A stretch of DNA of 32,375 nucleotides from Patescibacteria group bacterium (GTDB lineage Bacteria > Patescibacteriota > Microgenomatia > UBA8517), in NCBI GenBank assembly GCA_026416845.1, contig JAOAEL010000001.1, positions 83,565 through 115,939 on the forward strand, in the 5' to 3' direction. This document shows, piece after piece, positions 14,295 through 30,554 of this stretch; position 1 is the stretch's first letter; each line of letters starts with the position of its first letter. The position numbers and the translations under genes are program-made. The notes under the pieces were generated by a model. It saw nothing but the letters and a program-made list of their open reading frames with translations, ran no database searches and was not told where the DNA came from.

Positions 14295-14499
14295 TTTTGA
14301 TTTCTAAAAAATACCTAACTAAACCTATAATTGACAAAAAATAAGCGTACATGACTAAATTTGATCCCAAATTTTCTCCTCCCAAAATTAAAACTAAAAC
14401 AGACAGAAACAAAACTAATACAGAAACTAAAAACAAATACATACTTTTAATCCGAAAAAAAACAGCAACAAACAATCCTAAAAAAAGAAATATAATCAT
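14287..14499 (-). CDS. Small hydrophobic membrane protein (about 3 TM), 70 aa
   Basis: ATG start; ATGA overlap with the upstream gene and 8-bp overlap with the downstream gene; almost entirely hydrophobic. Confidence 0.75.
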   Translation of the reverse strand: MIIFLFLGLFVAVFFRIKSMYLFLVSVLVLFLSVLVLILGGENLGSNLVMYAYFLSIIGLVRYFLEIKNG

Positions 14500-14735
14500 T
14501 TTGTTCTTTTCACCAATAAAACACCAAAAAGAAAATAAATTAATAAAAATACAAAAGAGAGTCTAAAAGAAAACTCGGCGGCTTTTGTGAAATTAAACGC
14601 ATACAAAAAAATTCCAAGAAAAAACAAAAACAGACAATTGCGTGAGAATAGACCAATTTTCACTTTCTTTTTTATTAAAAAAAGGTAAACAAAAAACAAA
14701 AATACAAACCAATAAAAACCTGTTTCAATTAACAT
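14496..14735 (-). CDS. Small hydrophobic membrane protein (about 3 TM), 79 aa
   Basis: ATG start overlapping the upstream stop by 11 bp. With the 70-aa ORF it fills the gap between two large genes with no free intergenic DNA. Confidence 0.72.
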   Translation of the reverse strand: MLIETGFYWFVFLFFVYLFLIKKKVKIGLFSRNCLFLFFLGIFLYAFNFTKAAEFSFRLSFVFLLIYFLFGVLLVKRTK

Positions 14736-17655
14736 GTCTTCTCTTTTTTATTTTTACAAATAAATAAATCATTAATAATCCAGTCACAGTTATTAGTGAT
14801 ATCTTTTTACCAATCTCAAGAATCTTCTGTGGTGTATAAATCACTTTTATCTCATATTCTCCAGCTCTATCTATAATCCAGGCATTTGCGTAAATGTTCA
14901 CTTTCAAATGTTTTTTAGTGTCTATTAACTCATTGTCATGATAATAAACATGCCAACGCGAATCAAATAATTCTGAAAAAACAAGAATTTCTTGTTCATT
15001 ATCTTTTTTTGAAATTCGCACTTTATACTCGGTCGGATTGATATAAATATAATCCATAATTAATGTGCTTGTTTTTTGGGGCAATTCATTGTTTTTTAGC
15101 AAAGCAATATTTTCTCTTTCTTCCGAAGCAACAGCTATTTCATACTCTTCTTCTTCAAAATAAACACTTTTTTCCACATCGATCAAACTGCCATTTAAAT
15201 AAACTTTATCTGACTTGGCAACGCCCAATATATTATATTCTCCTTTGGAACTAACATTAAACTTATAAACATAAAACTTATTTTCTTGTTCAACTAAATA
15301 TTTTGGCTTTTTCACAATTAAATCAATAAAAGATCTTCTGAGTTCGTCAGCCAAAGGCGAATCAATTCTATCAAAAAGCTCAATGTGCAAAGACAAAGAT
15401 TGTCTTATAAGACCGGATAATGGCGTGCCTTCATAGTTTGACTTAAATATTGGCAATAATTCGTAAAACAATAATCTATAATCTTTTTCGGCTTTTCCCA
15501 AAATATCATCATTCAAGGAATCAAGCATTTTCAATTTATAAATTTCAACAGCTCTTTTGCCTAACAATCCTATTTTAAATATTGCTTTTGAATCTGAGTC
15601 TTTTTGTAAATAAAGCTCGAAAAGTTCTTTATATCTAACAAAAGGGTAAAAAAATGAATTGTGCAAATGCTCTACATGAAATAATCTTGCTAATATGTCA
15701 TCATCACTAAAAAATCTAAAATCTAAGATTTGATCCTTGTCATATAAATAACTATCCTTCTCTGGAAAAATCAAATCATAATTAGAACCAAAATTATCTT
15801 CATAAGACAAATAAGAATTTCTAAATTCGTTTCTCCCAAAAGCATTTTCTATTAAAACTAAATCTTCCGAGTTTGATTTAATTACGTTTTCTGCAATATA
15901 AAACTTTGGCAAAGAATAATCTTCATTTAACTCATATATTTTTATTTTTCCCGCGTTAAAAACCGGTTTTATTTTGCCTTCACCAATTAATTTTTCAATA
16001 TTCTCTTTCAAAACTTCCGGGTTAACCAATCCCCTTAATTCGTAATCAATATCTTCTCTAATAAGAATGTATTTCACATTAAGATACCTTAAGGCGGAAA
16101 GGAAAATCTCCTGATTTTGGTAATTTTCTATGCTTTTTACAATTTCATAGTAATAAGGTATTGTAGTATTAAAGGAAATAACAGGGGTGTCAAATATAGC
16201 ATTGGAAAGCTCAACTCCCGAATACGGATAATCCCAAGTGTATGTCATGCCCTCTCCACCCAGCGGCAAAACCAAAGTTCTTTGATAATTAGCATTTTCA
16301 TACAAAAATTTGTTCGCCTCATCATAATAATCCGGAACTTTTACGGAATAATCATCAGTAATGCCATCTCTAAAACCAGCGTTACTGGACAAAACATTCC
16401 CTGAGATAAAAGGATAAATATACACAAGAATTAGGATAAAAAAAATTAAATACGAAACTTCTGAAATAATTCTTCCAAAACTAATTTCGTTAACCGCAAT
16501 GACGCTTAATATTACAGTTGGCAAAATTAAAACCAAACTAAATTTTTCAAATGGATTTCTGAACACCTGCATAACTGAAAACTGATTAAATAAAACTGTG
16601 AATGATTCACCAAACGGAGGATTAGACCCTTTTGCAAGAAAAAGCAAAACAATAAAAACAAATATTAAAACTTTATAAATCTCCTTAACTTCCCGGCTCA
16701 AAGACCAAACAATAATTAGCGCAACAGGCAAGAAAGACAAAATATTTACAGGAAAAAATTTGTATACGCTAGCCCAAGATAAACCATTAGCAAAATCTTC
16801 GTGGATTAGTCTAAAAACGCTTACAAAATTGCCAAGACGACTACTGGTATCAGTTAATATAGCTAAATTCCCATCTGGAGAAAAAAAATTTGAAACAACT
16901 GAATTATAATTGCTAGAAGCGCTAAAAGAAAAAATTTGTGAAATCCACCAAAAATTAGAAAGCGCAAAAAGTACCACTGAAAGTAAAAAGTACTTAACTG
17001 CAAAAAAGAGATATTTCAAATCTTTGCGCACTAAAATCATCCCCAATGTGGCAAATGAAAACAAAACGTACATATTTAACACAAGAGCCAATGAAGAAAA
17101 AGCGTAAGCGCCAACAAATAAAAAAACATTAAGCGGCAATAAAATCAGAAAACTTCTTTTTACCAAACCTTCAATAAACAAGCAAAATGCAATCGGCAAA
17201 ATTGCCCAAAAAACAATAAAATTATTTAAAAAACGATTCCAGATATTAAAAGCGACAATCGGATTAAACCAATAAAATAAAATTGCGAGAATAACATATT
17301 TTTTTCCTATTTGGGGAGATAAAAATTTACATAAATTAACTATGCCAATTCCGGATAAAACAAATGCAAGGTAAAAAAAAGTAAATTGTTGAAGGTAAGC
17401 CGGCAAACCTAAACCATTTAGTAAACTAAAAAATCCATAAAAATAATTTCCGGAAGTTGTGGTATATGTTGAATTTCCAAGCGCATTTGGCGACCATGTA
17501 TAAGATGCGTGCAAATATTCTTTTGCGATATTATAAAAAGGCAATCCGGATTCTCCGACTCCCTTTATCAGCCCATCTTTAAACCACCACAAAAGCAAAA
17601 AAAATGGAAACAAAAGAAGAAAAATTAATAATAACTTATTTTTCAGCAACCACAC
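14725..17655 (-). CDS. Large membrane protein, AftD(DUF3367)/YfhO-like putative GT-C glycosyltransferase with an internal DUF5667-like helical module, 976 aa
   Basis: GTG start; WFKDG...GES loop, NFWWI, KGSNPPFG...VFRNPFEKF, VPDYY, RTLVLP, NVKYILIREDID, INPTEY, LVFSELFDSRW, YANAW, and YTPQ followed by a C-terminal TM. Confidence 0.68.
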   Translation of the reverse strand: MWLLKNKLLLIFLLLFPFFLLLWWFKDGLIKGVGESGLPFYNIAKEYLHASYTWSPNALGNSTYTTTSGNYFYGFFSLLNGLGLPAYLQQFTFFYLAFVLSGIGIVNLCKFLSPQIGKKYVILAILFYWFNPIVAFNIWNRFLNNFIVFWAILPIAFCLFIEGLVKRSFLILLPLNVFLFVGAYAFSSLALVLNMYVLFSFATLGMILVRKDLKYLFFAVKYFLLSVVLFALSNFWWISQIFSFSASSNYNSVVSNFFSPDGNLAILTDTSSRLGNFVSVFRLIHEDFANGLSWASVYKFFPVNILSFLPVALIIVWSLSREVKEIYKVLIFVFIVLLFLAKGSNPPFGESFTVLFNQFSVMQVFRNPFEKFSLVLILPTVILSVIAVNEISFGRIISEVSYLIFFILILVYIYPFISGNVLSSNAGFRDGITDDYSVKVPDYYDEANKFLYENANYQRTLVLPLGGEGMTYTWDYPYSGVELSNAIFDTPVISFNTTIPYYYEIVKSIENYQNQEIFLSALRYLNVKYILIREDIDYELRGLVNPEVLKENIEKLIGEGKIKPVFNAGKIKIYELNEDYSLPKFYIAENVIKSNSEDLVLIENAFGRNEFRNSYLSYEDNFGSNYDLIFPEKDSYLYDKDQILDFRFFSDDDILARLFHVEHLHNSFFYPFVRYKELFELYLQKDSDSKAIFKIGLLGKRAVEIYKLKMLDSLNDDILGKAEKDYRLLFYELLPIFKSNYEGTPLSGLIRQSLSLHIELFDRIDSPLADELRRSFIDLIVKKPKYLVEQENKFYVYKFNVSSKGEYNILGVAKSDKVYLNGSLIDVEKSVYFEEEEYEIAVASEERENIALLKNNELPQKTSTLIMDYIYINPTEYKVRISKKDNEQEILVFSELFDSRWHVYYHDNELIDTKKHLKVNIYANAWIIDRAGEYEIKVIYTPQKILEIGKKISLITVTGLLMIYLFVKIKKRRHVN

Positions 17656-18493
17656 GTATTACTTCCCCTTTCCCAAATTTGGTCAGAACAAAAGAAATCA
17701 TCAAAGACAAAGGAATAGTTATATAAAACAAAAATTTGCGGTTGTATTTATTCAATATTGAAAAAGAGAAATTTAAATTCGCTTTAAAAGGATAATAAAT
17801 GTCAATTTTCTTAAAACCACAACTGCGCAAAAATTTTTTGATGCCGTCACTGGTCCAATATATTGTGTGCTGGGGGACTCTTAACCAGTTATAATATTTC
17901 CCAAATATGATAAACAATAAAGAATTCGCATTTGGCACTTCTATAAAAAGTTTAGCTTTTCTTTTGAGAACTTTGTAAATAACTTTTATATCTTTTTTCG
18001 GATTGGTCAAATGTTCTAACACATGCCACATAGTCACACAATCCAAATTATTTACATTTACAATGCCTAACCTTTCTAGATCGCTATAATAGTTATTTGT
18101 GTCTCCAATGTTTCTTTTAAATAACTTTTTCGCAGACAAAGATATATCGTATCCATATACTTCCCAGCCTAGGGCTTTCATTTTTGCTAAAAAGGTTGAG
18201 TCTCCGCATCCATAATCTAAAATTTTGGCGTTTTCTTTCTTAATAAATTTTTGAACCAATTTGTCATAAGGCAAATACAAATGCAACCTAAACAATTTAT
18301 CTATCAAAAAATTTTTAGGGCAAGGATTGACAAAATATTCATCTTTATATATTTTCTTAACATTCCTAGGAAATGGATATAAGAAAAAGTTAAAACAATT
18401 GCCGCAATATACATAAGAAAAAAAATCAGAAACTTCAAAAGACCTAGTTTTTTCACTTATATATTTATGACAAACTGTGCACTTTAACTTCAT
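17636..18493 (-). CDS. Class I SAM-dependent methyltransferase with an N-terminal CxxC...CxxC zinc ribbon, 285 aa
   Basis: CTVC...CGNC, ILDYGCGDS, TMWHVLEH, IEVPN and PQH motifs. Confidence 0.88.
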   Translation of the reverse strand: MKLKCTVCHKYISEKTRSFEVSDFFSYVYCGNCFNFFLYPFPRNVKKIYKDEYFVNPCPKNFLIDKLFRLHLYLPYDKLVQKFIKKENAKILDYGCGDSTFLAKMKALGWEVYGYDISLSAKKLFKRNIGDTNNYYSDLERLGIVNVNNLDCVTMWHVLEHLTNPKKDIKVIYKVLKRKAKLFIEVPNANSLLFIIFGKYYNWLRVPQHTIYWTSDGIKKFLRSCGFKKIDIYYPFKANLNFSFSILNKYNRKFLFYITIPLSLMISFVLTKFGKGEVIRVVAEK

Positions 18494-19548
18494 TGTTTAA
18501 CTAAAAAAACTTTTTTAACCTTCTGCCTTGCGTACCAAATAGAATCCCAAACTATCGAAAAAACATTCCCTCTCTCAGATACAAAATCCATCCAAACAGA
18601 ATCTGCGAACTTTCTTCTGGATTGGACTATTTTTCTTTGTTCAAGCGTATCTTTTATATAAAAAATGTTCCAAGCAAAAGCTAAAGCAAAGCCAATAATT
18701 GGCATAAATTTAAACTGAAACAAATTATACAATCCCCGCAAAAAAAGCATAAAAATAACAAGTGGCAAATATCTAAAAACATTTAGCAAAGAATAATTTT
18801 TTATTACGATTCTAATTGTTTTAGCAAATTCATATTCCCAAATAAGTTTATTAATCATTTGGCCTCTTAACTTTGAACTTTTTGCGGTCCAGTGATATAT
18901 GATAGAACGAGTAGCCGTAACAGTTTTATATCCTGAAACCCATAAACGTATCGCTAAATCCAAATCATCTATATTAAACCTGAGTTTTTCATCATAAAAC
19001 CCAAACTTTGCCACCACACTTTTTCTAAAAACCACATTAGTAGCGCCTGCTAAACTATACTCTTTGCTAACATATTGGCCCTTATCTTCTTCACCAAAAC
19101 CCACGCATTTAACCCACATGAATTGTTTGTACAATCTTATTGCTGTGGTTTGTATTATTTTTCTTTGATTTATATCAAGTGTTTTGCCTTGAGTGGCAAC
19201 AACGCTTTTGTCTTCTTCTAAAATTGCAATATGTTCATCCAACCAATCAGACGCAACTTCCACATCATGGTCCAAAAGAGCAACATATTTACCCTTTGAC
19301 TTTTTAAAACCTAAAGATCTGGCGCCTGCTAACCATAAACGCTTCTTCGATAAAAACACTTTCAATTTCTTATTCTTGAATTTTGAAACTACTTGATAGT
19401 AAGTATCTGTATCATTCCCATCTACAATAACCAAAATCTCATAACACGGGTAATTTATTTTAAGCACAGAATTTATACAAGCATTTATATAAGGTTTGCT
19501 TTTGTACATTGGGATAACCACAGAAACAAGCGGCAATCTATTTTGCAT
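18490..19548 (-). CDS. GT2 glycosyltransferase (WbbL/rhamnosyltransferase-like subgroup), 352 aa
   Basis: VSVVIP, VDG, LLDHDV, FYDEK, DDLDLAIR and IYH motifs. Confidence 0.87.
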   Translation of the reverse strand: MQNRLPLVSVVIPMYKSKPYINACINSVLKINYPCYEILVIVDGNDTDTYYQVVSKFKNKKLKVFLSKKRLWLAGARSLGFKKSKGKYVALLDHDVEVASDWLDEHIAILEEDKSVVATQGKTLDINQRKIIQTTAIRLYKQFMWVKCVGFGEEDKGQYVSKEYSLAGATNVVFRKSVVAKFGFYDEKLRFNIDDLDLAIRLWVSGYKTVTATRSIIYHWTAKSSKLRGQMINKLIWEYEFAKTIRIVIKNYSLLNVFRYLPLVIFMLFLRGLYNLFQFKFMPIIGFALAFAWNIFYIKDTLEQRKIVQSRRKFADSVWMDFVSERGNVFSIVWDSIWYARQKVKKVFLVKQ

Positions 19549-20565
19549 TTAGTTTCTAAAATAATTTAAATAAATATTAATCAAACTTTCGCTAGTCATA
19601 GCGTGTTTGTATATGTATGACCAATTTTTCTTTCTAAATCCATTAATATGTTTTCTTTCATCCAGAGTATCAGCAAAATTTCTAATATTCCAAATAATAG
19701 CTTTCAAACTTCCCTTAAGCGCCGACAAATCTTTCCTGAAAATCAAAAAAGCAAAACCTCTACCCAAATTAATGGCCAAAGAAAAAGGCAGATATTTAAA
19801 AACATAAACCAATTCATAATTTTTTATAATTGATCTAAAAGAATTTTTGGCTAAATGAAAATAAATGTTTTCAATTTTTTTTATGTAACTTCTTTCCAAA
19901 GGCTTTTTTGTGTAATGATAAACTATGGAATTTTTCGCCAAAACTACCCTGTAACCTGAAATCCAAATTTTCATGCTAAAATCTATATCTTCTGTGGTAA
20001 CAGCTTCTTTTTCGTCAAAAACTTCTACAATTTCAATCGCTTCTTTTTTTACAGCCAAAGCGGCAGATATGGCAATAATCTCATAAAAATCCAACACTTT
20101 TCTAACTTTTTTATACGAATCTTTATGGTGCAAAGGCAAAATCCAATGGGTATGAGGTATAAGTTTGCCTCCAGCCATTTGTATTAGATTTCTATTTTCG
20201 TAATCAATAAGCAAAGATTGTGCCGCTCCAACTTCCGGATCCTTCAGCGCCTCTTCCAATCCCACTAGCCAGAAAGGGTCTACCTGCGTATCATTATCAA
20301 GAAAAACAATCACATCGCCTTTTGCTTTTTGAATTGCTACATTCCTGCTTTGAGCCGCTCCCAAATTTTTTTTGTTTTTTATAAGCCTGATTTTTTTGTC
20401 TTTATTTTGATTTATATAATTTCTTATAATTGAAACACTATCATCGGTAGACGCATCATCCACAACTATTAATTCATATGAAGCATAATTCGAATTCAAA
20501 ACCGAATCTAAGCAATCCTGCAAATATCTGCCACCATTATAATTGGCGATAATTATCGAAAACAT
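19549..20565 (-). CDS. GT2 glycosyltransferase (WbbL/rhamnosyltransferase-like subgroup)
   Basis: SIIIANYNG, VDDASTDDS, NLG...SRN, FLDNDT, FDEK, EDIDFS and VYH. Start moved to ATG 20565 (MFSIII), just after the upstream stop. Confidence 0.9.
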   Translation of the reverse strand: MFSIIIANYNGGRYLQDCLDSVLNSNYASYELIVVDDASTDDSVSIIRNYINQNKDKKIRLIKNKKNLGAAQSRNVAIQKAKGDVIVFLDNDTQVDPFWLVGLEEALKDPEVGAAQSLLIDYENRNLIQMAGGKLIPHTHWILPLHHKDSYKKVRKVLDFYEIIAISAALAVKKEAIEIVEVFDEKEAVTTEDIDFSMKIWISGYRVVLAKNSIVYHYTKKPLERSYIKKIENIYFHLAKNSFRSIIKNYELVYVFKYLPFSLAINLGRGFAFLIFRKDLSALKGSLKAIIWNIRNFADTLDERKHINGFRKKNWSYIYKHAMTSESLINIYLNYFRN

Positions 20566-20567
20566 AT

Positions 20568-21326
20568 TTAATTCTTTGCACAAACAGCAAATAAATACGG
20601 AGCCTGATCAATACGATCTTTAGCAAGTTTGTAATCCTTGGCAAGAAATTTTACTTTGTTTTCTCCAGTAATAATTCTTTTGGGCCATGCAGGAAAATAA
20701 TTAATGATTCTTCGCATAAAACGTTTTCTAACTATCATTGAAGCAAATTTCCAACGAAATGTTTCTTTAACTTTTTCTTCTTGGGTTTTTTTATAGTCCT
20801 TTAGAACAATTCCGTATAAAACCACTTCCTTGAAATTCCGTAAAAGCAAGGATTTAAATTCACTGGGATAATACTCTCTAACATGATAAGGATTGCTTGG
20901 CTTGTCGCCATCATAAGAACTCATATATCTATTAGGCGTGGATACAAAAAACAACCCTTTTTTCTTTAAGCCGGTGGAAACTATATCTAGGAATTTTTCC
21001 GGATTTCTAAGATGCTCTATAACTTCAAAACTTACAGCAATATCAAATCTTTCTTTGCCTAAATCCAACTTTTCCACATCGGCTTGAAAATAAAAAATGG
21101 TTTTACTTTTATAATGTTTATTGGCGTAAGCAATCGAGTTTTTATCATTGTCATAAGCTACAATTTCTTTCGCTCCAAATTTTGACAACAAATATGTTCC
21201 ATACCCATAAGCGCACCCTAGTTCAACAACACTTTTGCCTTTGACCTTACCTCGCAGACATTTATAACGAAATGTGTTAATTCCCCCCTTGTCCAAAAAA
21301 TCAGTTCTTTCACCTGTGAAAATCAT
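20568..21326 (-). CDS. Class I SAM-dependent methyltransferase, 252 aa
   Basis: FTGER, VELGCAYGYG, VSFEVIEH, STPN and NPYHVREY motifs; ATGA overlap with the upstream gene. Confidence 0.9.
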   Translation of the reverse strand: MIFTGERTDFLDKGGINTFRYKCLRGKVKGKSVVELGCAYGYGTYLLSKFGAKEIVAYDNDKNSIAYANKHYKSKTIFYFQADVEKLDLGKERFDIAVSFEVIEHLRNPEKFLDIVSTGLKKKGLFFVSTPNRYMSSYDGDKPSNPYHVREYYPSEFKSLLLRNFKEVVLYGIVLKDYKKTQEEKVKETFRWKFASMIVRKRFMRRIINYFPAWPKRIITGENKVKFLAKDYKLAKDRIDQAPYLFAVCAKN

Positions 21327-22834
21327 GTTTTTATTTCCTTTTCCGCTATCAATATTAAACCAAACGCCGGATAAATATACACAAAAAAAGACGCCAAATA
21401 TGAAATTAAACTAAAAACAGGAATCAAAAATTTCGGCATCGTTCTTGCACAACCATTAACACCCCAAATATATTTCAATCCTTGCCCATAAACACTATAC
21501 CCGCGTTTTATAAAATCATCAGGCAACCAACCAGATAAATGCTTTTGAAAAGGATTATCATCTTTTTCCTTTTCAATCGGTTCATATTCTATAAATCCAT
21601 TTGTAGTAGTTATCAATACCCTCCTGTTCGCCAATCTTTCCCAATCAGCAATGCTTTTCAAAGCAAGTTTTTTTGGCATATGTTCAACTACCTGCGAAGA
21701 AAAGACAAGATCAAACTTCTTTTTTCTCAAAGATTGTGGCAATTCCAAAATGCTGGATTTATATACTTTGTCATAAACCCCGCTTGCTATCGCCTGTTCA
21801 ATTGCTTTAGGATAAATCTCCACTCCCACTATTCTCCAATCTTTTTTACAAGACAGACATTGCATGTATTCACCTGTCCCGCAACCAAGATCCAGAACCG
21901 TTCTTATATCATCGCCTATCAGCTTGCGTATTATCCAAGCATAAGAAAAAGGCATAAACAAATAGCAATTAGTATACAAAATCCCATCAATAACACCCTT
22001 TAAATAATTAAACCAAGATTTGAATTTCCTGTATTTGATCGCAAGTTTCAAATAGTAAAAAGCATATAAAGGAATAAAAAACAAAAAAGTAATTTTGCCA
22101 AACTCTTTCATAAAAATAATTCTGTTTCGCGCCACATAATAGCCTCTGTCCAACAATCTATAAGCTTCTTTTTCTTTGTCCATAGAAATATCATGATAGG
22201 CTTTGGCTTTAGAAGAATAATAAGTTAGATAACCAATATTTTTGGCTCTGAAACAAAAATCTGTATCCTCAAAAGTTGCAAAATATTTGTTGTCAAATCT
22301 CAGTGATTCCAACAAACGCCTTTTCACCAAAAGACAAGCAGGGGCTACGCCAACTTCCTGATCTTTATTGTATTGGCCTTCATCTTTGCCACCCCTAAAA
22401 ATCACCCTGCCCGTCCATAAATTAATGTCAGTGCCAGCAGACCAAATAATTTTTTTGTCAGAAAAATAGTATATCTTGGGAGTAACAATGCCAATTTTAT
22501 AATCAGAATTGGCTACCTCTAGCATATTTTTCAGCATATTTTTATCGGCAATCATATCGTGATCAAAAAAAAGCACATATTCAGATTTGCGAGAAGCGTA
22601 ATAACATCCATAATTTCTGCCTCCAGTCACACCATAGTTTTTGCTAAGTCTAAAAACTCTCACAGAAGGGAAATTTTTGCGGATTTTTTGATATGTGTGA
22701 TCAGAAGAATTATTGTCAACTACAATCACCTCAAAAGGTTTGTGTGTTTGTTTCAATATTGAATCAATACACTTCTCCAAAGTTTTTACACTGTTATAAG
22801 TTGGTATTACAACTGAAACTTTGCAATCAGACAT
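21323..22834 (-). CDS. Fusion protein: N-terminal GT2 glycosyltransferase plus C-terminal class I SAM methyltransferase, 503 aa
   Basis: GT2 motifs VIPTYN, VDNNSSD, GRN, FDHD and FEDTDFC in about aa 1-290. Methyltransferase motifs VLDLGCGTG, GVEIY, FDLVFSSQVVEH, TTNG and HLSGW in about aa 295-503. Single open frame. Confidence 0.88.
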   Translation of the reverse strand: MSDCKVSVVIPTYNSVKTLEKCIDSILKQTHKPFEVIVVDNNSSDHTYQKIRKNFPSVRVFRLSKNYGVTGGRNYGCYYASRKSEYVLFFDHDMIADKNMLKNMLEVANSDYKIGIVTPKIYYFSDKKIIWSAGTDINLWTGRVIFRGGKDEGQYNKDQEVGVAPACLLVKRRLLESLRFDNKYFATFEDTDFCFRAKNIGYLTYYSSKAKAYHDISMDKEKEAYRLLDRGYYVARNRIIFMKEFGKITFLFFIPLYAFYYLKLAIKYRKFKSWFNYLKGVIDGILYTNCYLFMPFSYAWIIRKLIGDDIRTVLDLGCGTGEYMQCLSCKKDWRIVGVEIYPKAIEQAIASGVYDKVYKSSILELPQSLRKKKFDLVFSSQVVEHMPKKLALKSIADWERLANRRVLITTTNGFIEYEPIEKEKDDNPFQKHLSGWLPDDFIKRGYSVYGQGLKYIWGVNGCARTMPKFLIPVFSLISYLASFFVYIYPAFGLILIAEKEIKT

Positions 22835-22873
22835 TTCGTGGAATTTGAACTAATTTAAAAATTTTTATAAATT

Positions 22874-24076
22874 TTAATTTTTTATTGCCCGCAACAAATT
22901 ATTGGCCCGAACATCCCAACTCCAATTTTTTGAGATCATAGCATAAGCTTCATCACCTAAACTTCTCCTTAATTTATCATCTTTCAAAAGACGAACAATA
23001 TTATCCGCATAAGATTGCAAATCTCCAATTTTTACTTTAACCATACCTTTAGGATAATAAGACTTATACGCAACTAAATCAAAGCCTACGCAGGGAATTC
23101 CAAAAGCCATCGCTTCGGCAGAAGCCATGCCTCCACTATCATAAAACGCAGGGTGAACCACAACTTTGCTCTGAGACAAAATTTCGTATTTTTTGGGACC
23201 ATCAAACAAATATCCAAAAAGTCTTACATTTTTTTCTAATTTATTAGCCTTTATTTTTTGTTTTACTTTCTCCATCAATGGTCCATCTCCAATCATGGCA
23301 AGTTTTGCATTGGGGACTTTTTCAACAACTTTTGCCCAGATATCAATCAACTCAACAACCCCTTTTTGAGGATGAAATCTTCCCTGAAAAACGGCATCAT
23401 AAACTTTTCGTTGCAACAATTTTTCGTTTTCTGATAAATACTTTTTTATGTCCTCAAGAGGAACACCACCTATTAAAACCACAACTTTTCCTTTTCTTGT
23501 TTGAAGCGGAAATTGATTTTTCTCATTTTCATTATTAACAATTATCTTGTCGGCATATTTTTTAATCAAAGGTTTAACTGGAAACTGCATAAACCAATAC
23601 AAAAATGATCTTAATCTGTGAGAAGATCCCGGCCTTTTGTCTTCTTTGTAACCTTTCAACGGATTGGGGGCTGTCTGATACCATGTGCAAACCAATTTGC
23701 AGTGAGGATGGCGAATTTTGCAAATCATTGCCGGAAAAAAGTCCATCCAAAAATCAGACGCGGAATATAAAAAAGTTTTTTCAGTATTTCTTATTTTTAA
23801 TCTAAAACCTAATTTCAAACCCAACAATATTTTTTGAATGTATTTTACTAAAAATAAATTACTCAAATTATCTGAAACACTTATCAACTTAAGATATTTC
23901 CCGTTAAGTTTTTGCCTTCTGGCCATTTGAATCCCCTCTATCGTGGTGTATACACACACTTGGCAAGTTTTAGACCATTCTCTTGCCAATTCTATAAAAA
24001 TTCTGTCGCTTCCAGAAATGCCTTCACCTGTTGGAGCAAGCGCAAAGAAAATGAACTTACTTAGATTACTCGTCAT
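22874..24076 (-). CDS. GT4 glycosyltransferase (D-x7-E variant), 400 aa
   Basis: SGSDRIF, FQGRFHPQKG, IGDGP, YDSGGMASAEAMAFG and WSW motifs. Confidence 0.88.
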   Translation of the reverse strand: MTSNLSKFIFFALAPTGEGISGSDRIFIELAREWSKTCQVCVYTTIEGIQMARRQKLNGKYLKLISVSDNLSNLFLVKYIQKILLGLKLGFRLKIRNTEKTFLYSASDFWMDFFPAMICKIRHPHCKLVCTWYQTAPNPLKGYKEDKRPGSSHRLRSFLYWFMQFPVKPLIKKYADKIIVNNENEKNQFPLQTRKGKVVVLIGGVPLEDIKKYLSENEKLLQRKVYDAVFQGRFHPQKGVVELIDIWAKVVEKVPNAKLAMIGDGPLMEKVKQKIKANKLEKNVRLFGYLFDGPKKYEILSQSKVVVHPAFYDSGGMASAEAMAFGIPCVGFDLVAYKSYYPKGMVKVKIGDLQSYADNIVRLLKDDKLRRSLGDEAYAMISKNWSWDVRANNLLRAIKN

Positions 24077-24172
24077 TATTTCTAAGAAGGATATTCATCA
24101 GTAAATTTTAAAAGATCATTTATAAATACTCAAACCTAAATGTTTTATACAAATCAACAAACAAAACATAAT

Positions 24173-25021
24173 TTATTTGGTAACTACAGCTAAAACACCA
24201 ACTCCACTACCAGATGGCTGATACAAATCATTCAACTTGTCAACCAAATTGACAATTTTAAATGCCAAATTGATATAAAAGGGTCTTTTGGGATTATTTT
24301 CAAATTTATTTATCGCTTTTGATAAAGATTTATCCAATTTTCCACTATGAAGACCCCGCGCCGCCAAATGCATTAAGTTGTGATTAAATGGTAAACACCA
24401 ATAAGTTAAACTTTGCAATTTTAAAATTTTCAAACCCGATTTTTCAATCACTGTTGCCAATTCCTCAGGAGTATAAAGCCTTAAATGCTGATTCCAAATC
24501 CCAGCCCAAAAACCTTCTTTGATATGAGTACCAAAGAAATGTTGTAATATCCAATTAACTGGATCCCAAAAAAATGGGTAATTTTTATTAGGGACAGTGA
24601 CAACAATTATACCTCCTTTTTTCAACAATCTTTTGGCTTCTTTTAAACCTTTTACATCATCTTCCAAATGCTCGCAAACCTCGCTCATTATTATTTTATC
24701 AAAAGAACTATCTTGAAACGGAAGTTTCTTTAACACATCCCCATGTAAAAGCTGAACCTTCCTGCCAGAAAGATTTCTTTTAGCGCTTTTTAAAGCATTT
24801 TTGTCTATATCAATACCAACTAAATTTAATTTCATACCTAAACTCGAAAGAATATGAAGATAAAACCCGTCTCCACAACCTATCTCCAAAATTTTATCTT
24901 TATCCTGCAGATTCAAACTATCAATTATATTATAAGCCCTTTTTTTAAGAGCCATGTCTCCAGTATTTTGCAAAAGTTTATTTAACTTGTTAGACATTAC
25001 TAATTTCTTAGGTATTTTCAT
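24173..25021 (-). CDS. Class I SAM-dependent methyltransferase (Methyltransf_11-like), 282 aa
   Basis: ILEIGCGDG, GIDID, LPFQDSSFD, MSEVCEH, VTVPN and HLRLY motifs. Confidence 0.9.
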   Translation of the reverse strand: MKIPKKLVMSNKLNKLLQNTGDMALKKRAYNIIDSLNLQDKDKILEIGCGDGFYLHILSSLGMKLNLVGIDIDKNALKSAKRNLSGRKVQLLHGDVLKKLPFQDSSFDKIIMSEVCEHLEDDVKGLKEAKRLLKKGGIIVVTVPNKNYPFFWDPVNWILQHFFGTHIKEGFWAGIWNQHLRLYTPEELATVIEKSGLKILKLQSLTYWCLPFNHNLMHLAARGLHSGKLDKSLSKAINKFENNPKRPFYINLAFKIVNLVDKLNDLYQPSGSGVGVLAVVTK

Positions 25022-25032
25022 TTTGCAATAGA

Positions 25033-25061
25033 ATTATATCTTGGCAATTATTAAGTTTAAA
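25033..25061 (-). promoter_or_regulatory. Putative internal sigma70-type promoter upstream of the 282-aa methyltransferase
   Basis: Perfect TATAAT on the minus strand (25038-25033), 11 nt before ATG 25021. Weak -35 TTTAAA (25061-25056) at 17-bp spacing. Confidence 0.45.
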
Positions 25062-25093
25062 ATACTAAACTTAATCTAAAAAAACAAAACTAC

Positions 25094-27043
25094 TTATCTA
25101 GCAAATTTAATTTCTATTAAATCATGACTTATATTTTCTAAAACCCAAGAGTTTAAACCACCATATTCATGAGATTTATACTCGCGATTGCCAATTTTTA
25201 ATTTCCAATACGGATGATAAGAGCTTTTGAAAATCAATCGCGCAAACTTTGCTTCAAAATTAAGTTTGCCTAAATAATGTGTTGGTGAAATTTTATTTAC
25301 ACTTATAGAAATCAAGTCTATACCCTCAATATCCACAATCTGCGTCTGATTATTTCCAAATTCAACTTCATAAAATTCAAATATGGAATCTTCAAAAATA
25401 AGTTTCAAAGGCATTATTTCCTTCAAATTAAAAATCATCCAATCATTCAACCACAATTCGTCCAAATGTCCTCCTTTTGCAAGATCTTTTTGAAAGAGGA
25501 CATATTTAATATTCATTTTCTTAAATTGATTTTCGTCATATATATGTGAGACTAATTGTTGATAAAGTTTTTGATATTCTAAATCAGAAAATTTGTTGCC
25601 TACATACCTAGAAATCAATGTACAATCAACAAAATACTCAGTTGGAATAACACCAGTATATCCCCATTTATAAACCGCTCCATCTCCGTTAGTCATTGGC
25701 AAGACTAAGATTCTAGAACCTTCATTTTTGCAACCAGTGAAAGCATTCACCTTAGAATTTAGACTTTCATATTCGTAAGGAATTTTCACTCGAAAATTTC
25801 TCATTACATCTCCATTAATCATTGGATAAGAAAGTGCAAAAATTAAAATAATTCCTAAAACAAAACGATATCTACCTAAATTTCTAAGATGCAAAAGCCC
25901 CAAAGACACAAAAACAGAATATGGAAGTAAAAGCAATACGCCTAACTTCTCATAAGAATTTCTGAAAATTGCAGTTTCAGGAAAAGAAAAAAATAAAAAT
26001 TTATACACTTCAAGACCTAAAGGAGGGTTTGCTCCTTTTGCAAAAAATAAAACAATTACAAAAAAATAAAACAGATATCTCACCACAGGTTTAAACCAAT
26101 AATTAACCAAACCAACTAAAAAAAGAATCAAAATAGCGACTGAAAGCAAGTATGAAAAAGCAGAATCATAAAAAAAGTTCCAGATAAAATTCTGGTTCAA
26201 CAAAAACCTTTGGCGAAGGAGCAAAATTTCTTGTAGTGGAAAATAAGCGCTTACACTTTTCAACGATTCAAAATTAGTCAAATGATCAATTCTGTTGTCA
26301 AAAGAGCCTCTTATGTATAAAAAGTTATAAGAAATCCACCAAATGTTAGAAATTATTAAAGTTGCACAAACAAGCAAAGCTTTAAAAATTTTGACCTTCG
26401 TAATTTTTTTGGTACTAAAAATATCAATAAAAAAAATAAAAAATAATACAAAAATAACCAATAAAACATTTACAACAATCGTATAAACAAAAGAAAAAAA
26501 TACTTGACTTATAAAAATAATAAATAGATACAAAACATTATTTGTTCTAAAATATTTTATTGCTAACAATGTCAATAAAGGCAAGAAAGCCCAAATACCC
26601 ATTTGAGAATACAAAAATCTACTCCAAATTTGAGTCAAGCCATATAAATTAAATAAATAAAACAAAGAAGAACAAAAAGCCAAAATATTGACATCCTTAA
26701 AATTGCAAAATAATTGCTTAACTAAAAAATAAACTGAGACCGTACCTGTTACAATCAAAATATAGAAAAAAAACATTTGCACAAAAAAAATTGAGAAACC
26801 AAAATTTAAATTCAATTGATTAAACAAAGTAATTGGTATGTTTGCAGAATAAACCGGTTGCGCGAAACCCAAACCAGATTCTTGCCAAACAGAATTTTTG
26901 TCAATAGCATTTATCTTGTGAAAAATTGAAAACGACTCTTCCGCACCAGCTAAAACCAATCCATCCTTAAACCAAGTTGCTAATAAAAATATTGGCAAAA
27001 ATATCAAAAACCAAAAAAATTTATCTTTTTTTTCTTTGTACAT
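25094..27043 (-). CDS. AftD(DUF3367)/YfhO-like putative GT-C glycosyltransferase, compact paralog, 649 aa
   Basis: WFKDG...AEES loop, NIWWI, KGANPPLG...IFRNSYEKL, IPYEY, RILVLP, NIKYVLFQKDL, ISPTHY, LIFKSSYHPYW and GLNSW. Lacks the large insert and the C-terminal TM of its paralogs. Confidence 0.65.
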   Translation of the reverse strand: MYKEKKDKFFWFLIFLPIFLLATWFKDGLVLAGAEESFSIFHKINAIDKNSVWQESGLGFAQPVYSANIPITLFNQLNLNFGFSIFFVQMFFFYILIVTGTVSVYFLVKQLFCNFKDVNILAFCSSLFYLFNLYGLTQIWSRFLYSQMGIWAFLPLLTLLAIKYFRTNNVLYLFIIFISQVFFSFVYTIVVNVLLVIFVLFFIFFIDIFSTKKITKVKIFKALLVCATLIISNIWWISYNFLYIRGSFDNRIDHLTNFESLKSVSAYFPLQEILLLRQRFLLNQNFIWNFFYDSAFSYLLSVAILILFLVGLVNYWFKPVVRYLFYFFVIVLFFAKGANPPLGLEVYKFLFFSFPETAIFRNSYEKLGVLLLLPYSVFVSLGLLHLRNLGRYRFVLGIILIFALSYPMINGDVMRNFRVKIPYEYESLNSKVNAFTGCKNEGSRILVLPMTNGDGAVYKWGYTGVIPTEYFVDCTLISRYVGNKFSDLEYQKLYQQLVSHIYDENQFKKMNIKYVLFQKDLAKGGHLDELWLNDWMIFNLKEIMPLKLIFEDSIFEFYEVEFGNNQTQIVDIEGIDLISISVNKISPTHYLGKLNFEAKFARLIFKSSYHPYWKLKIGNREYKSHEYGGLNSWVLENISHDLIEIKFAR

Positions 27044-27068
27044 TTGAGAATAAAAACAGTAATAAAAA

Positions 27069-27112
27069 ATGTAAAATTATTTACATAATTTTAATGCAAT
27101 GTAAAATGTAAA
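27069..27112. repeat. Four copies of ATGTAAA (one inverted pair, one tandem pair) in a divergent intergenic region; possible operator or promoter
   Basis: ATGTAAA-ATTA-TTTACAT at 27069-27086 and ATGTAAA-ATGTAAA at 27099-27112. Confidence 0.45.
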
Positions 27113-27118
27113 TTAAAT

Positions 27119-27607
27119 ATGAAATCTGCATTATTAGTTGTTGTAACGATTATAATTTTTTCACTCTCATCTAGCGCCGTGATAGTTGATGCGAAAAAAA
27201 GCGAAGAACCTTTTGTTTACGAACAAATCAATCCTGATTCACGTTTAATCTACAAATATAAACGACTAAAAGAGAAGTTATATACTGCATATCTTGCAAA
27301 ATTTAGAAAAGAAAAACTGTCACAAAATTACATTGAACTTATCAATAGACGATTCAGAGAATTAAAGTATGTAGTAGACAAAGACAAAATAGATCTACTT
27401 GAAACCGTAACCTCCAGATACAATTCGCAAATTGGAGAAGTAACAAATATAAATACTAATCAAGAAACTAATATAAATGCCTTACAAGCTATACTGGAAA
27501 TTCAACAAGAAATCTTGCCAACGCTTAGGGATAAATACCCGGCAAATAGCGCTCAATGGTTGCTTTTGCAACAGACATTAGATACCATCAATGCCATTGT
27601 CAATTAG
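27119..27607 (+). CDS. Secreted or membrane-anchored helical protein, DUF5667-like, 162 aa
   Basis: N-terminal signal or anchor sequence (MKSALLVVVTIIIFSLSSSAVIVDA), then INPDSRLIYKYKRLKEKL...ELINRRFREL, matching my recollection of the DUF5667 pattern P-DS-x-Y-x-x-KR-x-x-E...L-x-x-[KR]R-x-x-E. Confidence 0.7.
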   Translation: MKSALLVVVTIIIFSLSSSAVIVDAKKSEEPFVYEQINPDSRLIYKYKRLKEKLYTAYLAKFRKEKLSQNYIELINRRFRELKYVVDKDKIDLLETVTSRYNSQIGEVTNINTNQETNINALQAILEIQQEILPTLRDKYPANSAQWLLLQQTLDTINAIVN

Positions 27608-27615
27608 CATATTCT

Positions 27616-29469
27616 TTAATTGCATAAATTTATTTTACAAAAACGCGCAATAACCTTTAATTCCCGAAAATCTTTTTCATTGGGAAACTTAATAATTTCA
27701 TTCCTTGCGCTTATATCTGAAATGGAGTAAGTTATTTTTCTTACTATTTCGTTTTTAGAATTGACAAATGTAAAAGTTAGACTTCCTTGAATTTTTTCTT
27801 TTTCTGACAACTTCACAAACAATGCAGAATATTTATTTTCAGAATCAACACTTGGCAAATAAAAATACGCGAATTTACCATCAAAACTTTTCCAAAGGCA
27901 ATCAGCATTTTTCACAACATATATTCTTGTCTCTTCTGTAACATTTCTAAATACACCAAGATCATCTATGCGCCAAGCATATATTTTCTCAGGATTATAA
28001 ATTTTCCCCGATTTTTTCGTGCCTCCGTATAACCAATCAGTAACATCCACGTTTGTATCGCACATCAAACGAATCATTGTTTCTTTATTGGCAAAAACCG
28101 GAAATTCTTCAAAACTTCTTATGCCACGAAAGTAAACATACGGATAAACACCAGACCAATCAAAAACATAACCTCTCAAAGCATGATCGCCAGAAACACT
28201 CAATACAACATCTTTACTATAAACTGGCACTGTTTTTAGTATATCTCCCCACATAGCCCTTACCACATATCTTGACCGGAATTTTTCTTCAGTGGTAATA
28301 ATTTTGTTGGCATGAAGCAAATAAAAAACTATGAAAACCGATAATATACCCAATTTATAATTTCCTTGCATCCTGGAAAGTAAAAATCCAATCACCAAAA
28401 CCAATCCTATATTTCCTATAGAAACATATCTGTGAGTAACTCCCAAAGAAATCATTGGTTCATATAACCAATTTGGCAAGTAAAACAATACCAACCACCA
28501 CAATAAAAGAGCTATTTTGCCTATAGTCAAAGATTTTTTTATTAAAAAAAACAAGCTTATTGCAACCAAAAACAAAACAAAAGCAAAGCCTAAAATTAAA
28601 CTCGTATTATCTCCAGCTGATAAACCGCCTTCTTCGTTCACGGGGAAAAAGGGCGATCTGATAATATTGCCAATCGTTATAAAAAAACGCGTGTAATAAT
28701 CTTCGCTTAATGCTTTTGCGATTATTGAAAATGTATCAAGTTTCCCACCCATAGAGCTTTTCCCGCTCGTTGCGACAATAACTTCTTTAATAACAAAGAA
28801 TTGCAAACAAACAAAGATGAAAATTCTTAATAAACTCTCCCTAAATTTATAAACTGGTTTTGGCTTGGAAATTGCGACAATAAACTCAAAAGCAGGTATT
28901 AAGAAAAGCAAAGCAATGCCCCTCCACAAATCAAACAAAAACAAGAGGCTGGCAAAAACATTTGAAAAAATAAAAAAGAATAATCTTTTTTTCGTTCGCC
29001 CATTAATAGAAACAACATAAAAAGCAAAAGAAATCAAAGACAATATCAGGATAAAACCATTAAAACGCGCCCACGAGAAAGACTCCATGCTATAAGGGCC
29101 TGATGAAAAAATCAAAGAGGCAAATAATCCAACACTTACATAACTAAACAAAACATAACCCAAAGATCCAATCAAAAACGATGCGATGATTTTAGAAATC
29201 AAACCGGCAAATTGCCACAAATAAGAGTCAGGACCAATTACATTAATAAAAACCCAATTAAAATAAGGAGCCAGAAATCTGTTTCTATAACTTTCCCAAA
29301 TCAAAGAATTTTGAAATTTGCCTGCCCAAATAGTAAACCAATCATCCCTCCAAAAATCAAAGTCTATCGCCTTGCCATAGCTTAAAATATTTAACAAAAT
29401 CACCAAAATTGCGTAAATTGTTACTGTAAAAAACAATTTCAAACCTAGTGATATTTTGTTTTTTTTCAT
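27616..29469 (-). CDS. Polytopic membrane protein, putative GT-C glycosyltransferase with a large C-terminal soluble domain
   Basis: DFWRDDW acidic pair after TM1, YR, about 11-12 TM segments, an HRY motif and about 210 aa of soluble C-terminus. Start moved to ATG 29469 (MKKNK), downstream of the upstream stop. Confidence 0.62.
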   Translation of the reverse strand: MKKNKISLGLKLFFTVTIYAILVILLNILSYGKAIDFDFWRDDWFTIWAGKFQNSLIWESYRNRFLAPYFNWVFINVIGPDSYLWQFAGLISKIIASFLIGSLGYVLFSYVSVGLFASLIFSSGPYSMESFSWARFNGFILILSLISFAFYVVSINGRTKKRLFFFIFSNVFASLLFLFDLWRGIALLFLIPAFEFIVAISKPKPVYKFRESLLRIFIFVCLQFFVIKEVIVATSGKSSMGGKLDTFSIIAKALSEDYYTRFFITIGNIIRSPFFPVNEEGGLSAGDNTSLILGFAFVLFLVAISLFFLIKKSLTIGKIALLLWWLVLFYLPNWLYEPMISLGVTHRYVSIGNIGLVLVIGFLLSRMQGNYKLGILSVFIVFYLLHANKIITTEEKFRSRYVVRAMWGDILKTVPVYSKDVVLSVSGDHALRGYVFDWSGVYPYVYFRGIRSFEEFPVFANKETMIRLMCDTNVDVTDWLYGGTKKSGKIYNPEKIYAWRIDDLGVFRNVTEETRIYVVKNADCLWKSFDGKFAYFYLPSVDSENKYSALFVKLSEKEKIQGSLTFTFVNSKNEIVRKITYSISDISARNEIIKFPNEKDFRELKVIARFCKINLCN

Positions 29470-29483
29470 TTTGCTAAAAACGC

Positions 29484-30554
29484 TTAAATCAAAAACACCT
29501 GATAAAACATACACAAATTAACCCCATACGCAGGCAATTTATAAGACAAACCAAACTGCTTTCTGACAAAATGATATGTTATCAAAAAAGCTGTCCAAAA
29601 ACTAAGTATCAAGTGAATTAAGTAACAAAAATTTCTTCTTGTGAAAGATAAATACAAACTATCAAAAAGAACCGGCAAAAGTAAAAACACATAAGGTAAA
29701 AAAAGGTATTTTTTAAAACTATAAAATCCTTTCTGATAATTATTTCTTCCTGAAAAACCGGCTAAGGCATAGTCTTTTTGCAAATAGACATTTAAAATAA
29801 TCCTCCAATTAATCTTCCTCAAATATCTTTTTAAAGAAGTTGCTGAATAATGGAATATAGGATCATCTTTGGCAATTGCAATTAATTTTTGATTTTTATT
29901 TAACAGATAAAAAGTGTGCCAAATCAGCTCGGGCACCTTCGTAACTTCCGGGCATTTTGTTAAGAAGAATGATTTATCCAACATACTGCCCATGGCGGCA
30001 AGTTCTATGATAGGTAAATTATTCTCTTGAGATAAATCAAAAACTACATAATCTTTAGTTTTTTTAACAACTAAATATCTGAAAATCATACTACGCAAAT
30101 AATATTTATGATTTTTGGATAATCTATATATAAAAAATGAAAAAGGATCTCCAAACTCATTAATATACCTATTGATAAACGGGTAATTTTTAGGATCCTT
30201 GTATCCTACGGGGGTAACAGCAACAACATCTTTTTCTCTTTCAAGGCAAGATACTTTCTTTTTAATACTATCAACACTTCCAAGAACCTCATCACTATCC
30301 AGAAATACAACATACTTGCCTTTCGCTTTTAGAAAACCGACATGTTTAGCGTAAGTAGGTTGTACCCTTTTATTTTGATATATCCTACATTTATATTCTC
30401 TTGCAATTTGCAAAGTTTCATCTGTGGAACCACCATCTAACACAATTATATCTATAGGTTTATATTTCTGCTTTTTTATTGATTGTAAAACCAATTCCAA
30501 AGTACCTGCAGAATTATAAGTTGCAATAACAATACTCACTAATGGACTTTGCAT
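29484..30554 (-). CDS. GT2 glycosyltransferase with C-terminal TM helices, 356 aa
   Basis: VSIVIATYNS, LDGGSTDET, FLDSDE and a hydrophobic C-terminus. Confidence 0.88.
   Translation of the reverse strand: MQSPLVSIVIATYNSAGTLELVLQSIKKQKYKPIDIIVLDGGSTDETLQIAREYKCRIYQNKRVQPTYAKHVGFLKAKGKYVVFLDSDEVLGSVDSIKKKVSCLEREKDVVAVTPVGYKDPKNYPFINRYINEFGDPFSFFIYRLSKNHKYYLRSMIFRYLVVKKTKDYVVFDLSQENNLPIIELAAMGSMLDKSFFLTKCPEVTKVPELIWHTFYLLNKNQKLIAIAKDDPIFHYSATSLKRYLRKINWRIILNVYLQKDYALAGFSGRNNYQKGFYSFKKYLFLPYVFLLLPVLFDSLYLSFTRRNFCYLIHLILSFWTAFLITYHFVRKQFGLSYKLPAYGVNLCMFYQVFLI

Follow-up and report, generated by a model that had tools for sequence, protein, structure and literature searches.

Multi-component systems for extracytoplasmic glycosylation, such as GtrABC and CsbB-GtcA-YfhO, combine a polyprenyl-phosphate glycosyltransferase of family GT2, a small flippase and an enzyme of the GT-C class. 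Here we describe a window of DNA (the whole stretch analysed, 32,375 nucleotides, positions 83,565 to 115,939 of contig JAOAEL010000001.1 in assembly GCA_026416845.1) from a Patescibacteria group bacterium. The window encodes three AftD-like GT-C enzymes; one of them, of 976 residues, carries an internal helical module homologous to DUF5667, and a separate gene encodes a free-standing DUF5667 protein of 162 residues. In Pfam, DUF5667 (PF18915) is an uncharacterised helical domain common in Patescibacteria; the 162-residue protein is a member by score threshold, the fused module by profile homology only. Like the three-component systems, the window holds GT2 genes and GT-C genes; its flippase gene is of the Wzx type. 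The small protein, with only one hydrophobic helix and an ectodomain built of helices, is no multi-pass flippase of the GtrA or GtcA type; it would be a fourth, undescribed component of such systems.

The mycobacterial enzyme AftD offers the closest structural comparison. As described in the AftD preprint, the stretch that joins the alpha/beta domain of AftD to its C-terminal membrane helices contains three beta-sandwich carbohydrate-binding modules (CBMs) and a structural beta-sandwich, with no helical module among them; transmembrane helix 12 comes next, and then a bundle of four membrane helices to which acyl carrier protein (ACP) binds. Like AftD, the 976-residue protein begins with a GT-C membrane domain and continues with a periplasmic alpha/beta domain; both have an extensive extracytoplasmic part and C-terminally return to the membrane. 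Its sequence identity to the AftD structure 6w98 is about 10%. In its model, by contrast, the five-helix DUF5667 module is joined by only one beta-sandwich region, and the C-terminus is a single helix; the three CBMs and the ACP-binding bundle that the preprint describes for AftD are not found in it. Judged by domain order rather than by residue-level mapping, the DUF5667 module would sit where AftD has its glycan-binding modules.

Our literature search returned no paper on DUF5667 or PF18915, although domain-architecture tables, such as those of InterPro, may already list rare combinations of GT-C and DUF5667. It likewise returned no paper on AftD together with Patescibacteria, and none of the papers listed on AftD or GT-C enzymes treats the candidate phyla radiation.

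An AftD-like glycosyltransferase with an internal helical module

The 976-residue protein matches the Pfam family GT-C_AftD (PF11847) over residues 74-560 with 44 bits (cut-off 26; E 9.9e-12). Its AlphaFold model (predicted local distance difference test score, pLDDT, 83.5; predicted template modelling score, pTM, 0.79) consists of a membrane domain (residues 7-418), a periplasmic alpha/beta domain (423-640), a helical module, a beta-sandwich region (793-940) and a C-terminal membrane helix (942-975). A Foldseek search of the PDB with this model returned AftD (6w98) as best match (E 1.5e-12), followed by STT3, AglB, PglB, DPY19 and AftA. Sequence and model together indicate that the protein is most likely an AftD-like GT-C glycosyltransferase that depends on a polyprenyl-phosphate sugar. 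We refer to it as the long type.

Two further proteins of the window belong to the same family. The 649-residue protein, the short type, is 28% identical to the long one over residues 12-536 (BLASTP, E 2e-30), so that the two are paralogs, and it has no counterpart of residues ~540-870 of the 976-residue protein. A hidden Markov model (HMM) of the GT-C N-terminal domain matches it at E 1.6e-49, and neither the segment profile described below nor DUF5667 does; the Pfam scan gave no PF11847 match for it, and its membership rests on paralogy. A more distant paralog of 928 residues matches the long protein in BLASTP at E 4e-11 and 9e-9.

The free-standing protein of 162 residues is a borderline member of DUF5667, matching PF18915 over residues 37-132 (profile positions 2-96 of 99) with 28.1 bits against a cut-off of 27 (E 2.7e-6), and with 29 bits in a genome-wide DUF5667 search. 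In its model (pLDDT 83.9), an N-terminal hydrophobic helix (residues 2-19) leads through a disordered linker into a five-helix domain, and by this helix the protein is predicted to be exported or anchored in the membrane. Both the fused and the free-standing domain are placed outside the cytoplasm. A protein atlas search with the small protein returned only other small DUF5667 clusters, with scores below 0.9, and gave no functional lead.

Homology of the module to DUF5667

An initial annotation of the window had aligned the segment around residues 662-779 of the long protein by eye with the 162-residue protein; the reading frames, their coordinates and the head-to-head arrangement of the 162- and 649-residue genes across 75 bp are as it described. 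Taken alone, that alignment is not above chance. The resemblance could be convergent or compositional, a likeness between two lysine- and glutamate-rich helical bundles, and pairwise searches leave it there: BLASTP between the 976- and 162-residue proteins gave a best E of 1.9, which is not significant, and the Pfam DUF5667 profile found no match above its 27-bit cut-off in the complete 976-residue protein or in residues 662-779 alone. These null results weigh against our interpretation, and a first hhalign comparison with thin alignments (7 vs 4 sequences) was also not significant (E 0.17). In a six-frame search of the 1.08-Mb genome with the Pfam profile, residues 666-708 of the long protein were the third-best match (12.3 bits, E 0.18); the two better ones were the genome's two true DUF5667 genes.

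Comparison of fuller family profiles speaks against convergence. An independent DUF5667 profile, built from 30 loci of related genomes, matched the segment family in hhalign with a probability of 92.5% (E 4.9e-7), and with 97.9% (E 3.4e-13) when the segment was represented by 17 long GT-Cs. The segment family (11 sequences) and the family of the 162-residue protein (9 sequences) aligned over 106 columns, in the register of the by-eye alignment, at 93.9% and E 1.5e-7; with all 35 members of the small family the values were 95.8% and E 7.9e-9. The controls were clean. Tiling the 17-sequence alignment of the long family against DUF5667 gave a match for only 2 of 16 tiles (E 3.4e-13 and 4.9e-10; the other 14 at E >= 0.046), an earlier tiling had given 2 of 14 (the other 12 at E >= 0.1), and a reversed-profile control gave E 0.23. 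The two module-less families, treated in the same way, contained no DUF5667-like tile: the best reached E 0.0029 with 10.5% probability in the short type, and E 0.034 in the 928 type. The proposed resemblance therefore holds at the level of profiles, at which the segment also matches DUF5667 itself, and the 649-residue paralog does lack the insert, as the initial annotation had stated.

The same relationship emerges when a profile of the segment alone, from 11 long GT-Cs, is searched against 1.84 billion representative proteins, which yielded 1117 matches at E <= 0.001. Among the best 150 of these, 109 were proteins of 900-1250 residues, matched at about residues 650-800; 28 had at most 300 residues and were matched at about residues 35-170, with E down to 1.9e-17; nine had 301-899 residues, and four were giant multi-repeat proteins of more than 1250. 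All ten small or giant matches that we sampled are PF18915 proteins, nine of them above the cut-off, so that a profile made only from glycosyltransferase segments finds Pfam-verified free-standing DUF5667 proteins. PF11847 was found at E <= 0.01 in six of eight long matches sampled, in one case above the cut-off, and two of the eight showed a sub-threshold PF18915 match of 17-25 bits at the module position. Because PF18915 scores below threshold at that position in the long GT-Cs sampled, standard annotation has left the fusion unannotated. In the opposite direction, the profile of the small family matches inside seven long GT-C frames (E 2.5e-6 to 3.3e-4).

Two genomes show the fusion with stronger Pfam scores. 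In G095, DUF5667 matches with 48.8 bits (E 3.9e-13) inside a 1177-residue GT-C frame, at the position orthologous to the fused segment. In G064 (L040, C4, 5765-9329, minus strand), the long architecture appears split into a 655-residue GT-C open reading frame (ORF) and a second ORF, an open frame of 545 residues (489 from the first start codon) that opens with DUF5667 (40.2 bits) and has the C-terminal domain at its end; a true fission of the gene, a frameshift and a sequencing error could each account for the split. Invariant residues of the segment family and the 162-residue family also coincide (the consensus P at 665 with P39, E677 with E52, R701 with R78, E704 with E81). Both models have five helices in the same order, at residues 670-682, 687-710, 716-740, 747-763 and 768-779 in the fused module and 42-62, 64-87, 91-114, 119-137 and 145-161 in the small protein, with lengths of 13/24/25/17/12 and 21/24/24/19/17 when read from each model separately. 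We regard it as almost certain that the segment at residues ~662-779 is homologous to DUF5667 and to the 162-residue protein; convergence is very improbable and largely refuted.

DUF5667 also occurs in repeated form. Representatives of 1358-1822 residues are matched by the segment profile in three stretches, and giant ORFs of 1740-1850 residues, in which DUF5667 recurs at least three times with strong scores of up to 83 bits per repeat, are present in genomes of family f2 (L003, L005, L007, L008).

Neighbourhood of the small-protein gene in related genomes

We surveyed 121 genomes of the same order, including the present one. DUF5667 occurs in 119 of them, mostly as a protein of ~210 residues and also in several copies within ORFs of 1500-1850 residues; the AftD-like family occurs in 71. 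The family of the 162-residue protein is sharply bounded, with 35 full-length members of at least 98.5 bits, one per genome in 35 of the 121 genomes, and the next match at 34 bits. We scanned the flanks of these 35 genes, ~10 kb on each side and less at contig ends, with family HMMs (Table 1).

Table 1. GT-C gene nearest to the small-family gene in the 35 genomes that have one; G numbers denote genomes of the survey
Nearest GT-C	Genomes	Members
Module-less short type, divergent, within 212 bp (this genus only)	2	G000, G106
Module-less 928 type, same strand, 23-212 bp downstream of the small gene	10	G007, G014, G020, G044, G001, G012, G010, G002, G084, G092
AftD-like at 1-3 kb	4	G120, G104, G100 (GT4 between), G113
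AftD-like at 7.5-9.3 kb	2	G082, G093
PMT_2-type of ~700 residues within two genes	11	G031, G053, G056, G074, G115, G055, G078, G058, G073, G067, G005
PMT_2-type ~6 kb away	1	G018
No recognised GT-C nearby	5	G110, G072, G041, G066, G030

Fusion and adjacency both recur outside the present genome. The close relatives examined follow one layout of the cluster, in which a long GT-C with the module is directly followed by a paralog of the 928 type, with a short type (633-723 residues) in addition, and the other genome of this genus (G106, L042) repeats the divergent arrangement of the 649-type and small genes. In 12 of 35 genomes, from 8 genera and 3 families, a module-less AftD-like GT-C is found no more than 212 bp from the small gene. 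All 12 of these directly adjacent enzymes are module-less, and the module-bearing long type abuts none of the 35 small genes.

Such proximity might be mere hitch-hiking: reduced genomes concentrate envelope genes in islands, exported proteins are often found near a GT-C, and fusion and adjacency would then be unrelated. The window lends this some colour, for all of it is one glycan island, with at least five GT-C-type genes and a sixth GT-C-like one, and direct adjacency to an AftD-like gene is limited to the 12 genomes just described. Several observations point the other way. None of these GT-C families was found in the flanks (~1.3-1.5 kb) of any of 19 loci of the ~210-residue DUF5667 type, and the short same-strand gaps between the small gene and the 928 type recur in ten genomes of seven genera. 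An AftD-like match is present in 33 of the 35 genomes with the small family, against 38 of the 86 others; the genomes are related rather than independent, so that such counts are descriptive and overstate the significance of the enrichment, which tells against our interpretation. On balance we think hitch-hiking distinctly unlikely.

A second kind of neighbourhood resembles the three-component systems. In 7 of the 35 genomes (L057, L058, L062, L063, L065, L070, L077), a GT2 gene of ~315 residues follows the small gene immediately (gap of at most 11 bp, or overlap), and a convergent PMT_2-type GT-C of ~700 residues lies nearby; the GT2 and PMT_2-type assignments come from Pfam for one pair and from phmmer similarity to that pair for the others. 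The ~700-residue neighbours had also been considered as homologs of the 632-residue protein of the window; phmmer ruled this out, and they are PMT_2-type GT-Cs. Carbamoyltransferases separate the small gene from the GT-C in G113, and the next gene in G066 and G030 encodes a polytopic membrane protein of 555-557 residues.

In G092, a protein of 1124 residues is encoded divergently from the small gene (L074, 6385-9759, minus strand). It has a YfhO C-terminal match at residues 534-613 and a PMT_2 match at residues 732-859, and may have arisen by fusion of two GT-C enzymes.

Other genes of the window

The 32 kb of the window form a surface-glycan island in a 1.08-Mb genome that is 96.8% complete. 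Its Pfam content comprises GT4, GT2 and PMT_2-type glycosyltransferases, several methyltransferases, an AsnB-like amidotransferase, a Wzx-type flippase and a UDP-GlcNAc 2-epimerase; the GT-C-type genes are three AftD-like and two PMT_2-type ones. Table 2 gives the coordinates. The 162-residue gene is the sole plus-strand gene in its stretch of the window.

Table 2. Features of the window that bear on the DUF5667 proteins and their GT-C neighbours
Feature	Position	Strand	Evidence
976-residue long-type AftD-like GT-C, with module	14725-17655	-	Pfam, model, Foldseek
Internal divergent DUF5667 module, residues ~662-779 of the 976-residue protein	15319-15672	-	hhalign, segment-only profile search, model
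649-residue short-type AftD-like paralog, without module and without C-terminal membrane helix	25094-27043	-	BLASTP, family HMM
Intergenic region between the divergent 649- and 162-residue genes, 75 bp	27044-27118	.	Coordinates
162-residue free-standing DUF5667 protein, subfamily F162	27119-27607	+	Pfam PF18915, model, family survey
928-residue distant AftD-like paralog (928 type), module-less	11508-14294	-	BLASTP, HMM, NB860 profile 1033 bits
632-residue polytopic membrane protein, convergent with the 162-residue gene	27616-29514	-	Hydrophobic segments, weak profile similarity
Seven genes between the 976- and 649-residue GT-C genes: three class-I methyltransferases, two GT2, one GT2-methyltransferase fusion, one GT4	17636-25021	-	Pfam
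Polysacc_synt gene, Wzx-type	10180-11466		Pfam
70-residue hydrophobic ORF	14287-14499	-	
79-residue hydrophobic ORF	14496-14735	-	

The 632-residue protein had no match in Pfam and NCBIfam scans. It has about nine hydrophobic segments and a soluble tail of ~220 residues, a layout like that of GT-Cs, and profile comparison of its family with the PMT_2-type ~700-residue family gave a weak match (68.5%, E 4.6e-5, 87 columns); it is probably another unannotated GT-C. The 928-residue paralog has a sub-threshold NCBIfam match, over residues 290-450, to the MmpA family trehalose lipid delivery protein (39.5 bits, cut-off 210).

The 976- and 928-residue genes are separated by a 430-bp gap with two small, very hydrophobic ORFs whose ends overlap, and which may encode small membrane proteins of the GT-C operon. 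A decayed copy of the small DUF5667 gene was looked for in this gap, and none was found.

The second DUF5667 gene of the genome encodes a 207-residue protein of the ~210-residue type (L001, 1384-2007, minus strand; G000:C33). It stands between nrdR, on its downstream side, and an 87-residue ORF and a CPBP-like membrane protein on its upstream side, nrdR and CPBP being named from their translations alone, and shows no linkage to GT-C or sigma-factor genes.

Discussion

We propose that DUF5667 may act as an extracytoplasmic accessory module of polyprenyl-phosphate-dependent surface-glycan assembly, handling the acceptor or the lipid carrier or serving as a scaffold. The long enzyme would hold the module in cis, facing outward between the GT-C alpha/beta domain and the terminal beta-sandwich, and the small exported or anchored protein would serve GT-Cs that have no module of their own: in this genome the AftD-like enzymes of 928 and 649 residues, and elsewhere enzymes of the PMT_2 type. 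To this explanation as a whole we assign a probability of about 45%. Its parts differ in standing. The homology of the two modules, their outward-facing position, the order of the domains and the recurrence of fusion and neighbourhood are established. A functional link of DUF5667 to GT-C glycosylation is probable; the accessory role and physical contact in trans are inferences, and true binding of the small protein to the module-less paralogs is, in our judgement, rather unlikely.

The initial annotation had reached a similar idea for this locus, supply of the module in cis in one paralog and in trans in the other. The Rosetta-stone link between DUF5667 and this GT-C family on which it built is real; the pairing with the 649-residue type did not generalise. 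Head-to-head pairing with the short type occurs only in this genus (G000 and G106). Eleven genomes have short module-less paralogs and no small-family gene (G062, G077, G096, G076, G095, G064, G027, G083, G057, G119, G047; six established by local ORF scans, five from frame lengths and matched profile ranges), and for this reason the small protein is not obligatory for these enzymes.

Other observations also count against the proposal. The nearest GT-C is not AftD-like in 17 of the 35 genomes: it is PMT_2-type in 11 + 1 of them, and 5 have no recognised GT-C nearby. A third of the small family thus goes with PMT_2-type enzymes, 11 of 35 within two genes and beside a GT2, such a GT-C or both. 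Within family f2, a long GT-C that bears its own module is also found ~2.3 kb from the small gene. The fused module resembles other DUF5667 subfamilies at least as closely as it does the small family, its match to the giant-repeat type being 97.5% at E 6e-12. Finally, a Foldseek search of the PDB with the 162-residue model gave no match at E <= 0.001, only generic helical bundles, and because of this the fold offers no functional hint. Complex prediction for the 649-residue GT-C with residues 30-162 of the small protein scored 0.00 in both runs, in which the controls did not fold either, and is neutral on binding.

We also considered whether the small protein had recently split off from the fused module. 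This is unsupported, the module being at least as close to the giant-repeat type of DUF5667.

Alternatively, the homology might be real and the small protein no subunit of a GT-C at all. It could instead be another component of the island, such as the glycosylated acceptor, an assembly or chain-length factor or an envelope sensor, the fused module being mainly a structural spacer. The small gene does stand in operons with varied partners, among them the GT2 genes that directly follow it, the GT4 genes of G100, G120 and G104 and the carbamoyltransferases of G113, and the 11 genomes that lack it despite having module-less paralogs fit such a role as well. Against it stands the distribution of adjacent genes, module-less in all 12 cases and never of the long type, as complementarity in cis and trans predicts; moreover, neither DUF5667 gene of the present genome is near any of its three sigma-70-type genes. 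We consider this alternative possible, if doubtful.

If the accessory-module explanation were extended to the other contexts of the domain, DUF5667 could be a glycan- or lipid-carrier-handling module used in four formats: inside AftD-like GT-Cs in place of CBMs; as a detachable subunit for module-less GT-Cs, AftD-like or PMT_2-type; as the outward-facing domain in proteins that partner sigma factors; and as repeats in giant surface proteins. This broader reading is improbable; were it true, one domain would couple the synthesis, sensing and display of surface glycan in reduced bacteria.

What is new here is an AftD-like GT-C with an undescribed, putatively accessory module, together with a linked family of small proteins. 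The architecture is a compact one, in which a helical module replaces the CBMs, and a divergent DUF5667 that standard annotation has missed is present in more than a hundred representative AftD-like GT-Cs (109 of the best 150 matches). DUF5667 thereby gains a first functional and testable context, the extracytoplasmic assembly of glycans in ultra-small bacteria that have not been cultivated and of whose envelopes little is understood.

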